Source of the DNA: Escherichia phage APCEc01 | Sequence record: NC_029091.1 | Direction: 5' to 3' (one strand) | Length of the DNA: 64,000 bases | Part shown: piece by piece, positions 58,934-63,603 of the stretch | Numbering within the stretch: the stretch's first letter is position 1 | Layout of the letters: every line of letters begins with the position of its first letter | Position numbers and translations under genes: made by a program | Notes under the pieces: model-generated | Databases searched by the model: none | Told to the model about the DNA's origin: nothing | What the model saw: the letters and a program-made list of their open reading frames with translations, nothing else

Positions 58934-59296
58934 ATGAAAGCATATCAAATTCTTGAAGGCACACACAAAGGCACTATTTATTTTGAAGACGGTACTCAAG
59001 CCCGGATTATTGTCTCTAAGACTTTTAAAGAAGACGCTATTGTAGACCCGGAAATTTTCTACGGTTTGCATGCCCGTGAAATTGAAATTGAACATCACCC
59101 TAAAGTTAAAATTGAAGGTGGTCAACATCTGAACGTTAACGTTCTGCGTCGTGAAACTCTAGAAGATGCAGTTAAGCATCCAGAAAAATATCCGCAGCTG
59201 ACCATCCGTGTATCTGGTTATGCAGTTCGCTTTAACTCTCTGACTCCGGAACAGCAGCGCGACGTTATCGCTCGCACCTTTACTGAGAGTCTATAA
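58934..59296 (+). CDS. grcA: autonomous glycyl radical cofactor (GrcA/YfiD-like; T4 Y06I-type)
   Basis: 120 aa; C-terminal glycyl radical motif [27 protein letters not shown]; C-terminal ~57 aa match E. coli GrcA as recalled; host-like codon usage in 3' half. Confidence 0.8.
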
Positions 59297-60052: not shown

Positions 60053-60511
60053 ATGACTATCAATTCAGACGTTTTTATCCGCCGTAATAAACTCCGTCGA
60101 ATCTTTGAAACGGAGTTCCGCAAAATAAATGCCGGTATAAAAGATGCTGCAAAGTCTCTTGGACTACCAGGCTTTCATATCAAGTATTCTCAACATCTCT
60201 TAGATCGTGCCATCCAGAGAGAAATAGATGAGAATTACGTTTTTGAATTATTTCATAAAGTAAAAAATCATGTTAAAGAAGTTGCAGAATTTTTATCAAT
60301 GCCGGCACGTCCAGATGTTGATGAAGATTTTGTCGAAGGTGTCGAATATCGCCCAGGCCGTTTAGAAATAACTGATGGAAATCTTTGGTTAGGACTTACA
60401 GTTTGTCGCGAAAATCCGGCATTCAAAATGAAGACTCTTCAATGCAGAATGGCTATTATTAACAATAAACGACTACCAGGAAAAGCTTCTAAAGCAGTGA
60501 TTAAAATCTAG
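60053..60511 (+). CDS. regB: RegB site-specific endoribonuclease
   Basis: 152 aa; MTINSDVFIRRNKLRR...KYSQHLLDRAIQREIDE...LQCRMAIINNKRLPGKASKAVIK matches T4 RegB as recalled. Confidence 0.9.
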   Translation: MTINSDVFIRRNKLRRIFETEFRKINAGIKDAAKSLGLPGFHIKYSQHLLDRAIQREIDENYVFELFHKVKNHVKEVAEFLSMPARPDVDEDFVEGVEYRPGRLEITDGNLWLGLTVCRENPAFKMKTLQCRMAIINNKRLPGKASKAVIKI

Positions 60512-60519
60512 AGGTAAAC

Positions 60520-61062
60520 ATGAGAAAAGCACTACTCGCTGGTCTATTTGCTCTTTCATTATCAGCACATAGCTCCGAGCATACTTTTAGTAATGTCCAA
60601 CTCGATAACTTGAATTATGCTTATCAGTTTGGGGAACAGTTTTCTAAGGATGGAAAATTTAAAACGCATGAAAATATGCATAAGAAAGGACTTGGATACA
60701 TAATGGCCGCAATACTATGGCAGGAATCATCTGCCGGTATTAATCTTAAAGATAAGAAAGGTCACCATGCGTATGGAATGTTCCAAAATTATCTACCGAC
60801 AATGAGGGCAAGAATTAACCAGCTTGGTTATAATATGACTGATGCCCAAATTAAGAAAATGCTATCTAAGCGGTCTAATTCAGCCAGATGGGCTTATATC
60901 GAATTTTCTTATTGGTTAAATATACATAACGGGGATATAAGAAAAGCTATATCCTCATATAATGCGGGATGGAAGACAAGTGCCGGAAGTAAATATGCTT
61001 CTGAAGTCCTAGAAAAGGCTAATTACCTTAAATCAAATAAACTACTGGAAATAAAAGAATGA
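60520..61062 (+). CDS. secreted lytic transglycosylase-like protein (SLT domain)
   Basis: signal peptide MRKALLAGLFALSLSAHS; SLT motifs E-S (WQESSAG), AYGMFQ, YNAG. Confidence 0.6.
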   Translation: MRKALLAGLFALSLSAHSSEHTFSNVQLDNLNYAYQFGEQFSKDGKFKTHENMHKKGLGYIMAAILWQESSAGINLKDKKGHHAYGMFQNYLPTMRARINQLGYNMTDAQIKKMLSKRSNSARWAYIEFSYWLNIHNGDIRKAISSYNAGWKTSAGSKYASEVLEKANYLKSNKLLEIKE

Positions 61063-61406
61063 CCAAAATGTTGGCTTTAATAGTTGGCTTGGTTTCATTT
61101 AACGCTCTTGCTAATACTACATATACTGATGTAACGGAGTATACAAACAGAACGGCGTCTGATTACTGTGGTAAAAGTCAAGAGTGTAAAGTAGATTTTT
61201 CACAAAAATTGTTATATGCGTATAAAGACGGAGAAAAAGACGGGGCGTCTAGTAGGTTCAAGGCGTCTACCTTAATTAAAAGATACTATAAAAAATGGCA
61301 AATATTAGAATGCTCGGTGGCGGAACCTAAAGATAAGGCAGCATGCAATTCTATGGTGGACCGTCTAGTTGACTCTTATAATAGAGGACTTGCAGCAAGT
61401 GATTAA
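61059..61406 (+). CDS. secreted small Cys-containing protein (115 aa)
   Basis: signal peptide MTKMLALIVGLVSFNALA; four Cys residues. Confidence 0.5.
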   Translation: MTKMLALIVGLVSFNALANTTYTDVTEYTNRTASDYCGKSQECKVDFSQKLLYAYKDGEKDGASSRFKASTLIKRYYKKWQILECSVAEPKDKAACNSMVDRLVDSYNRGLAASD

Positions 61407-61866
61407 AAACTATATCAAGGGCGATATTGTCGCCCTGTTTTCTAAAGGTAATAATATTGCTCATGGGTGTAATTGTTTTCATACAATGGGCGCGGGTGTG
61501 GCAGGACAATTAGCAAAGGCTTATCCAAAAATTCTGGAAGCCGATAAACTTCAAACCGAATTCGGAGACGAGTCTAAACTCGGGACTTATTCGGTTTATG
61601 AAAAATATTTTAAGACCCATAAAGCTTATTGCTTTAATCTTTATACACAGTTTGAGCCGGGACCTAATTTTGAGTACTCTGCTTTAATGAATTGTATAAT
61701 AGAATTAAATGAATTCGGAAAGAATAAGATAATAAAGCCTGTAATTTATATGCCAAGAATTGGTGCAGGTATTGGTGGTGGAAACTGGGATGTCATCGAA
61801 GAGATTTTAGATACGTATTCTACTAAACTAGAAATTGTGATTGTTGATTGGGAACCGTTATTATGA
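61399..61866 (+). CDS. macrodomain-like protein (ADP-ribose binding/processing fold), probable GTG start
   Basis: motifs GNNIAHGCNCFHTMGAGVAGQL and PRIGAGIGGGNWDVIEEIL resemble macrodomain N-x(6)-GGGV and P-x-I-S-T-G-x-x-G signatures; no in-frame ATG before the first motif. Confidence 0.5.
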   Translation: MIKNYIKGDIVALFSKGNNIAHGCNCFHTMGAGVAGQLAKAYPKILEADKLQTEFGDESKLGTYSVYEKYFKTHKAYCFNLYTQFEPGPNFEYSALMNCIIELNEFGKNKIIKPVIYMPRIGAGIGGGNWDVIEEILDTYSTKLEIVIVDWEPLL

Positions 61867-63300: not shown

Positions 63301-63603
63301 ATGGCCTTAAGAGCGATAGCTGTCATAGCGATGCTGGGGTTTTTTGCAGCAACAACTCCTATCGTTGGTACTGCACATATCGACCCATATTTTGATAACT
63401 TTATGGAATCAGGGATTAAAAACGTATATACTTTGTTTGAAATTCAAAATGTCGAGAATTCTGAAAAATTCTATAAGTATATGGCAAAGCATTACAAAAA
63501 TAGCCCCTGTGATGATGCATTTGAATGTCATGAACAAGGCATAAAAACTGCCAGACAATTTGCCGAGTTCATGAAAATAAAATTAGAGCCTACATCTATC
63601 TAA
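63301..63603 (+). CDS. rI: RI lysis inhibition regulator (antiholin), secreted
   Basis: 100 aa; N-terminal signal/SAR segment; DPYFDNFMESGIK...CHEQGIKTARQF resembles T4 RI as recalled; position next to tk. Confidence 0.7.
   Translation: MALRAIAVIAMLGFFAATTPIVGTAHIDPYFDNFMESGIKNVYTLFEIQNVENSEKFYKYMAKHYKNSPCDDAFECHEQGIKTARQFAEFMKIKLEPTSI

Follow-up and report, generated by a model that had tools for sequence, protein, structure and literature searches.

The closest described relatives of the locus reported here are two adjacent genes of bacteriophage T4, vs.1 (T4p112, UniProt P13311) and vs (T4p111, UniProt P13310, PF26829). Their counterparts were analysed in Escherichia phage APCEc01 (NC_029091.1), as a pair of overlapping open reading frames (ORFs) within one strand of 64,000 nucleotides (nt), referred to as the window. 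T4 Vs.1 is listed as uncharacterised, with similarity to the SLT domain. This resemblance is already known, both from the literature, where a 2006 paper rated it 'marginally significant', found it conserved in all six of the T4-like genomes and saw earlier PSI-BLAST matches corroborated (PMC1524935), and from annotation, as several GenBank records label Vs.1 'transglycosylase SLT domain-containing'. T4 Vs owes its name to a small T4 factor that binds the host valyl-tRNA synthetase (ValRS) and changes its properties (Muller and Marchin 1975, 1977, as cited in PMC8076793).

In the phage APCEc01 locus, both proteins are probably exported and Vs.1 is probably a murein enzyme of the GH23 family. 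The most interesting remainder is the predicted periplasmic and disulfide-bonded nature of Vs, set against its cytoplasmic textbook function, together with the coupling of vs to the gene of a putative murein enzyme. As a gene call the locus is routine, consisting of two named, widely sequenced T4-type genes; its importance is modest and lies in two points, the function of Vs.1 and the compartment of Vs.

Identity of the two genes

The two ORFs are orthologues of the named and already catalogued T4 genes vs.1 and vs. Their orthology follows from matches of the first ORF to phrog_600 (E 3.7e-67, residues 1-178) and of the second to phrog_1256 ('valyl tRNA synthetase modifier', E 1.8e-35), from amino acid identities of 83% to T4 Vs.1 and 68% to T4 Vs, and from the shared T4 gene order. 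PF26829 is precomputed for all Vs homologues. The annotated order in T4 is regB, vs.1, vs, tk.4, tk.3, tk.2, tk.1, tk, rI.1, rI, and the window matches it; the position of vs.1 between regB and vs is common to T4, IME08, PWKp16 and JK45. The features of the pair are as follows.

60520..61062, plus strand: vs.1 orthologue, 180 amino acids, predicted precursor of a periplasmic SLT/GH23 lytic transglycosylase (phrog_600, identity to T4 vs.1, SLT in homologues, AlphaFold2 (AF2) model and Foldseek)
60520..60573, plus strand: predicted Sec signal peptide of Vs.1, residues 1-18, MRKALLAGLFALSLSAHS, with SEHT following the cleavage site (signal-peptide-like features across homologues)
60724..60726, plus strand: codon of Glu69, predicted catalytic acid/base in the E-S motif (invariant in 69 homologues)
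61059..61062, plus strand: ATGA overlap, vs start codon on vs.1 stop codon (read from the sequence; translational coupling would be expected)
61059..61406, plus strand: vs orthologue ('valyl-tRNA synthetase modifier', PF26829), 115-amino-acid precursor (phrog_1256, identity to T4 Vs, PF26829)
61059..61112, plus strand: predicted Sec signal peptide of Vs, residues 1-18, MTKMLALIVGLVSFNALA, with NTTY following the cleavage site (signal-peptide-like in 36 of 38 homologues)
61167..61346, plus strand: span of the Cys codons of Vs, C37 at 61167-61169, C43 at 61185-61187, C85 at 61311-61313 and C96 at 61344-61346 (invariant in 38 homologues)

A first-pass annotation of the window, made from the letters alone, had placed the two ORFs correctly, at 60520-61406, and had treated the pair as unrecognised genes. 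The latter view did not hold, given the PHROG matches, the identity to T4 and the gene order. For the second protein the annotation was right in describing a small, Cys-containing, exported-looking product, and it overlooked the annotated identity as a ValRS modifier.

The window copy of Vs.1 shares with T4 Vs.1 its length class, the position between regB and vs, the predicted signal peptide and the motifs, and differs from it in nothing substantive; it represents a JK45/CEV1-type allele that is 99-100% identical to deposited sequences. The Vs copy likewise agrees with T4 Vs in its 115 residues, four cysteines, C-terminal helix motif and neighbours, and no structural difference was seen. Vs.1-like sequences occurred in 2051 phage records and Vs in 794. 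Vs.1 is thus widely conserved, reaching Felixounavirus and Kuttervirus, and an experimental function for it was not found in the literature.

Vs.1 as a predicted GH23 enzyme

The motifs E-S, AYGMFQ and YNAG, which had been noticed in the first protein before any comparison, are present as W67-Q-E69-S70-S71, A84-Y-G-M-F-Q89 and Y147-N-A-G150. In an alignment of 69 Vs.1 sequences, homologues being collected down to 40% identity, the residues E69, S71, G86, Q89, N90, E128, W132, Y147, N148, G150 and Y159 were invariant, a set which we take to be the motif set of family-1 lytic transglycosylases with SLT-like spacing. A catalytic glutamate that is not conserved had been proposed as a refutation of the enzymatic prediction; this refutation fails, E69 being retained in every aligned homologue. 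The Pfam domain SLT (PF01464) matched 67 of the 69 homologues at E <= 0.1, with a best E of 1.3e-7. With hhalign, E69 fell on E64 of E. coli MltE/EmtA within 'IESG...AIGLMQ', in a weak match (E 0.087); E64 is the catalytic residue of MltE. A search of NCBIfam with Vs.1 gave no match.

The AF2 model of Vs.1 reached a predicted local distance difference test score (pLDDT) of 89.6. Its Foldseek matches in the PDB comprised a GH23 chitinase, MltD, phi29 gp13, Slt, T7 gp16 and phi6 P5. The top matches were all GH23 or lysozyme-like, with probabilities of 0.97-1.0, template modelling (TM) scores of about 0.45-0.55 and E values of 0.015-0.3. The modelled fold and the motifs fit a GH23 enzyme, and the prediction of an SLT/GH23-type protein was supported by invariant motifs, SLT matches in homologues and the GH23-like model. 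Judged from the sequence, the chemistry would be that of a transglycosylase rather than of a hydrolase.

Vs.1 resembles the family-1 lytic transglycosylases (Slt70 and MltE/EmtA of E. coli, MltD and Slt of P. aeruginosa) in its E-S, GLMQ-like and AYNxG motifs, in the lysozyme-like helical fold of the model and in its predicted periplasmic location; in size it is similar to the specialised secretion-system enzymes of the EtgA and VirB1 class. It differs from the family-1 enzymes in being very divergent in sequence, in not being a lipoprotein and in having no known associated envelope machine. A further difference is an additional helix/hairpin at the N-terminus (residues 25-58), in which Q27, N30 and G38 are invariant. 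Three of the Foldseek matches, T7 gp16, phi29 gp13 and phi6 P5, are virion-borne murein enzymes. Like T4 gp5, itself a lysozyme from another family, they are carried by the virion and work from the outside during entry, whereas Vs.1 has a predicted Sec signal and is an early product of the infected cell. Vs.1 is not known to be among the listed T4 virion proteins.

Orthologues of Vs.1 (60520-61062 in the window) are misnamed 'Endoribonuclease RegB' in JK45, slur04 and slur07 and 'putative RegB' in the Kuttervirus phages SS9 and FrontPhageNews, and the RegB label also occurs in some UniRef names. It was apparently carried over from the neighbouring regB gene.

Predicted export of Vs.1 and Vs

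Signal peptides were sought with a home-made rule requiring basic residues, followed by a hydrophobic core of 10 or more uncharged residues and then by small residues at positions -3 and -1. The strict rule was run on all ATG-initiated ORFs of at least 60 amino acids in the window (n = 142), and a looser version on the homologues of Vs.1 (the 69 sequences above) and of Vs (38 sequences, down to 43% identity). Three of the 142 ORFs passed, namely vs.1, vs and the orthologue of the RI antiholin (63301-63603). The signal peptide of RI is cleavable by experiment (PMC8385771), and RI thus served as an internal positive control for the rule.

In both N-termini a basic n-region precedes a hydrophobic core of 13-15 uncharged residues and an AXA-type site, with cleavage predicted between A-H-S and S in Vs.1 and between A-L-A and N in Vs. 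The looser rule was satisfied by 68 of the 69 Vs.1 homologues, the exception having an atypical start, and by 36 of the 38 Vs homologues, both exceptions having truncated N-termini. Column conservation was lower in the signal peptide than in the mature part (0.31 vs 0.52 for Vs.1, 0.44 vs 0.59 for Vs), and the signal-peptide columns of both families drift in sequence yet stay strongly hydrophobic, which is the pattern expected of signal peptides. AF2 confidence was low at the N-termini, over residues 1-20 of Vs.1 and residues 1-19 of Vs (pLDDT about 50). The predicted mature proteins would have 162 amino acids, 18.7 kDa and an isoelectric point of 9.6 (Vs.1) and 97 amino acids, 11.0 kDa and an isoelectric point of 8.3 (Vs, precursor 12.9 kDa). 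Export of Vs.1 and Vs is a well-supported prediction, and the signal peptides suspected from the first inspection of the sequence were recovered by the rule.

Among described phage proteins, T4 RI and Spackle, the inhibitor of the gp5 lysozyme, are comparable to Vs.1 and Vs in being small, Sec-exported (as predicted for the present pair) and pre-replicative. RI lies 2 kb downstream of vs.1 and vs in the same cluster. No tie of Vs or Vs.1 to lysis inhibition or exclusion was found, and Vs is similar only to its own family.

Two related genomes hold further candidate envelope proteins at this site. In Acinetobacter phage AB-Navy71 (L005:2782-3207) a protein of 141 amino acids with a signal peptide is encoded directly 3' of the Vs-like gene, and in Aeromonas phage 31 (L011:3368-3808) a lipoprotein-like ORF of 146 amino acids occupies the slot of Vs. 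T4-like genomes seem to accumulate genes of proteins destined for the envelope in this region, the last of them being rI.

Sequence and structure of Vs

Cys37, Cys43, Cys85 and Cys96 of Vs were invariant in the 38-sequence alignment, and the C-terminal helix (helix 4) was almost invariant with the sequence SMVDRLVDSYNRGL. The AF2 model (pLDDT 86.8) consists of four helices, 20-37, 41-64, 69-85 and 90-114. In it C37 and C43 flank the turn between helices 1 and 2, and C85 and C96 the turn between helices 3 and 4, so placed that the cysteines may form two disulfides stapling the helical hairpins. Divergent Vs-like ORFs from Acinetobacter, Krischvirus and Pseudotevenvirus phages had the same layout of four Cys.

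Vs resembled nothing outside its own family. The Foldseek search of the PDB with the model gave no match at E < 0.001, a PDB profile search and a Pfam search gave no match to a known inhibitor or any other family, and in the viral structure library BFVD only Vs proteins matched. A phmmer search of 1.84 billion representative sequences returned seven matches. Six were members of the Vs family, and the seventh, an unrelated protein of 378 amino acids, matched weakly and probably by chance. No fold or sequence similarity was found to the known lysozyme or transglycosylase inhibitors Ivy, MliC/PliC, PliG, LprI/DUF1311 and Spackle. An assignment of Vs as a DUF1311/LprI-type lysozyme inhibitor was considered and rejected, as structure 3gi7 matched with a probability of 0.07, none of the 38 members had the Pfam match and the PDB profile search found none.

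Weak structural matches of Vs in BFVD included 'Lipoprotein' proteins of the Cronobacter phages A24 and CS01 and the 131-amino-acid protein A0A7T6ZLD2 (probability 1.0, TM 0.60, root-mean-square deviation 2.6 over 98 columns, E 0.31). Vs may have remote helical relatives in these proteins, located in the envelope.

Expression and fitness in T4

The description of both proteins as early is supported by orthology, since T4 multi-omics data place the transcripts of vs and vs.1 in the early class and their proteins in the middle class. A promoter consensus scan was uninformative on timing, with 18 promoters found vs 19.9 expected in shuffled sequence and hence no enrichment. In the transposon study HIDEN-SEQ both T4 genes were non-essential, and its authors named vs as the gene with the strongest conditional depletion in M9 glucose, which they confirmed with a knockout. 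The values below were drawn from a supplementary sheet taken to be the comparison of LB with M9, as it precedes the sheet 'K-12 vs CFE299' and has vs on top. For each gene the mean insertions in the LB control, the log2 fold change in M9 glucose, p and adjusted p are given.

vs: 26.6; -2.19; 0; 0
vs.1: 22.6; -0.87; 0.0055; 0.155
regB: 178.6; 1.17; 0.0488; 0.797
tk.4: 289.6; -0.07; 0.861; 1.0
vs.3: 652.1; -0.06; 0.913; 1.0

In the LB control the neighbours of vs and vs.1 carried about 7 to 30 times as many insertions as these two genes. The shared depletion of the two genes fits a common pathway and could equally reflect polarity of vs.1 insertions on the coupled vs. Nothing was found to connect either gene with the roles in superinfection exclusion or lysis timing that the first-pass annotation had put forward; the only phenotypes encountered were non-essentiality and the minimal-medium defect of vs. 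A paper on lysis timing concerning ORF52 of BSPM4 turned out to be unrelated.

Compartment of Vs

Vs looks periplasmic because it combines a conserved leader with four invariant cysteines at helix turns. A predicted exported and disulfide-bonded protein sits uneasily with the cytoplasmic partner of ValRS that the name of T4 Vs implies, and this conflict is flagged here. Two points speak for the older view. The work of Muller and Marchin, as cited in PMC8076793, ties the vs locus to the cytoplasmic ValRS, and a role of T4 vs in amino-acid supply would explain its minimal-medium defect at least as well as a periplasmic role would.

Vs may therefore be cytoplasmic as annotated and bind host ValRS, its N-terminal stretch being no export signal or an inefficient one, its four cysteines metal-binding or structural, and its adjacency to vs.1 a mere consequence of conserved T4 gene order. 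Such a Vs would agree with an annotation that descends from T4 genetics and biochemistry, and the rank of vs as top minimal-medium match in HIDEN-SEQ would suit the economy of amino acids and tRNA charging; T4-like genomes are moreover broadly syntenic, so that adjacency alone is weak evidence. It is difficult to reconcile with an n-region, a 13-15-residue core and an AXA site that are kept in nearly all homologues while the sequence drifts, and with leader features that are found even in Vs-like proteins at 26-29% identity. The cysteine spacings C-x5-C and C-x10-C over helix turns are unlike usual zinc sites, and there is no internal start for a leaderless form, as no in-frame Met occurs between residues 4 and 99. 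A cytoplasmic Vs of this kind appears possible but somewhat doubtful.

The ValRS factor purified in 1977 reportedly had a mass of about 10 kDa, which would suit the vs ORF and is closer to cleaved Vs (11.0 kDa) than to the precursor (12.9 kDa). Full-length T4 Vs with an N-terminal His-tag, expressed in the cytoplasm, was insoluble and formed inclusion bodies (PMC8076793). Inclusion bodies are expected of an uncleaved precursor, and the observation is a weak hint in this direction. Literature text searches found no discussion of a signal peptide on Vs.

If Vs is periplasmic and works with Vs.1, either the wrong ORF was chosen for the vs locus, or the complex with ValRS forms only once cell breakage mixes the compartments. 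With a periplasmic Vs, a decades-old functional label would need revisiting, and the minimal-medium defect of T4 vs would call for an explanation in the cell envelope and not in translation.

Linkage of vs.1 and vs

The spacing of the two genes was compared across phages.

Window: vs.1 and vs overlap by 4 nt
T4: vs.1 and vs overlap by 8 nt
IME08: vs.1 and vs directly abut
PWKp16: 2-nt gap between vs.1 and vs
Acinetobacter phage AB-Navy71: vs.1 and Vs-like gene overlap by 1 nt
Krischvirus: 7-nt gap between vs.1 and Vs-like gene
Metagenomic T4-like contig L015: 4-nt overlap, PF26829 gene
Metagenomic T4-like contig L013: 16-nt gap, PF26829 gene
Citrobacter phage IME-CF2: Vs-like ORF one ORF away from vs.1

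In the Vs-like proteins of AB-Navy71, Krischvirus and IME-CF2, which lie beyond the reach of tblastn, the leader and the four-Cys layout are retained, as is the '...G-L' motif at the C-terminus. With hhalign, the proteins of AB-Navy71 and IME-CF2 scored probabilities of 71% (E 3.8e-5) and 84% (E 7.2e-6), respectively. The linkage is kept in much of the Straboviridae and is not obligatory; T4-like genomes are syntenic anyway.

A functional link between Vs.1 and Vs is conceivable. A more far-reaching reading, which we hold to be less likely than not, is that Vs could be a Sec-exported, disulfide-stapled, periplasmic four-helix protein acting with the adjacent Vs.1, for example as its regulator. 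A joint action of Vs and Vs.1 in the periplasm, be it instead of or alongside an action on ValRS, likewise appears less likely than not.

In a stricter form, modelled on the restraint of the gp5 lysozyme by T4 Spackle, the two proteins would be a periplasmic enzyme and its modulator, Vs binding Vs.1 or a host murein enzyme and restraining or directing its activity. Stop/start coupling, an adjacency kept from the Tevenvirinae to the Acinetobacter Twarogvirinae and Krischvirus, and the predicted common compartment are consistent with such a pair; the near-invariant helix 4 (SMVDRLVDSYNRGL) is what would be expected of a binding surface, and the fitness effects of vs.1 and vs in T4 go in the same direction. 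Several facts tell against it. Vs has no similarity to known lysozyme or transglycosylase inhibitors, the DUF1311 structure being the sole lead, and Vs.1-like enzymes occur without Vs in several phage groups: no Vs-like neighbour was found beside the Vs.1-like genes of a Kuttervirus, a Felixounavirus and the Aeromonas phages CC2 and 31. In M9 the effect of vs.1 loses its significance on correction and might be due to polarity, and the low insertion counts of vs.1 are likewise explicable by polarity on vs. We consider a dedicated enzyme-modulator pair rather unlikely.

Enzymatic nature of Vs.1

The reading of Vs.1 as a lytic transglycosylase also has its weak sides. The window protein scored 18.8 bits against Pfam SLT, below the gathering cut-off of 21.3. 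Although the probabilities of its Foldseek matches ranged from 0.7 to 1.0, the E values were only 0.015-0.6 and the TM scores about 0.5. PDB sequence searches with the single sequence, a profile and a divergent member gave nothing significant, and the GH23 family also contains hydrolases, namely goose-type lysozymes and the top-matching chitinase. That Vs.1 is a GH23 hydrolase similar to goose-type lysozyme or chitinase, or a non-catalytic murein-binding protein, would suit the chitinase 3w6e as best Foldseek match, a marginal profile contact with goose-type lysozyme (E 0.72) and the sub-threshold SLT score, but is improbable in view of the invariant family-1 motifs E-S, G-[LM]-[MF]-Q and Y-N-A-G with a later Tyr in SLT-like spacing, the SLT matches in nearly all homologues and the strict conservation of Glu69, which speaks against a protein without catalysis.

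In the reading that we prefer, vs.1 and vs are transcribed early within the regB-tk cluster, and their products are most likely exported via Sec and cleaved by signal peptidase I. Vs.1 would be a small periplasmic family-1 (SLT, GH23) lytic transglycosylase. With Glu69 as its single acid/base it would cut the bond between N-acetylmuramic acid (MurNAc) and N-acetylglucosamine in the host murein, forming 1,6-anhydroMurNAc, and it would act from within the periplasm of the infected cell, well ahead of lysis by holin and endolysin. An early periplasmic murein-cutting enzyme is an odd product for a lytic phage long before lysis. Vs, translated from the coupled downstream frame, would be an 11-kDa four-helix protein that appears built for the periplasm because of its two presumed turn-stapling disulfides.

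Neighbouring genes and sequence elements

The window belongs to Tequatrovirus; its 3-kb stretch around vs.1 and vs had 99.9% DNA identity to Shigella phage JK45 (Tequatrovirus) and at least 95% identity to about 170 further records. Around the pair lie regB (Pfam REGB_T4, E 3.5e-69), a macro-domain ORF and the gene of thymidine kinase. Two sequence elements flank the pair.

60511..60514, plus strand: Shine-Dalgarno sequence GAGG of vs.1, 5 nt 5' of the ATG (read from the sequence)
61418..61446, plus strand: terminator-like GC hairpin and T-run, 12 nt 3' of the vs stop codon, within the 5' end of tk.4 (consensus scan only)

The regB ORF ends at 60511, the final base of its stop codon being the first base of the vs.1 Shine-Dalgarno sequence. 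The hairpin reads AGGGCGA...TCGCCCT, followed by the T-run, and one related record carries a terminator annotation in the stretch that holds 61418-61446. Transcription may accordingly terminate in part between vs and tk.4, or an element of RNA stability may lie there.

The macro-domain ORF 3' of vs is the tk.4 orthologue (61399-61866 in the window), for which the ORF listing has a TTG start at 61369; read from its GTG start, it shares 8 nt with the 3' end of vs. In T4 this gene was renamed adfM, and it protects the phage against the DarTG2 defence system (2025 preprint). Upstream, the vs.6 orthologue (58934-59296 in the window, 120 amino acids, ending ...RVSGYAVRF...) codes for a GrcA-like glycyl-radical spare-part protein and is labelled 'pyruvate formate-lyase' in JK45 and 'autonomous glycyl radical cofactor GrcA' in T4 RefSeq.

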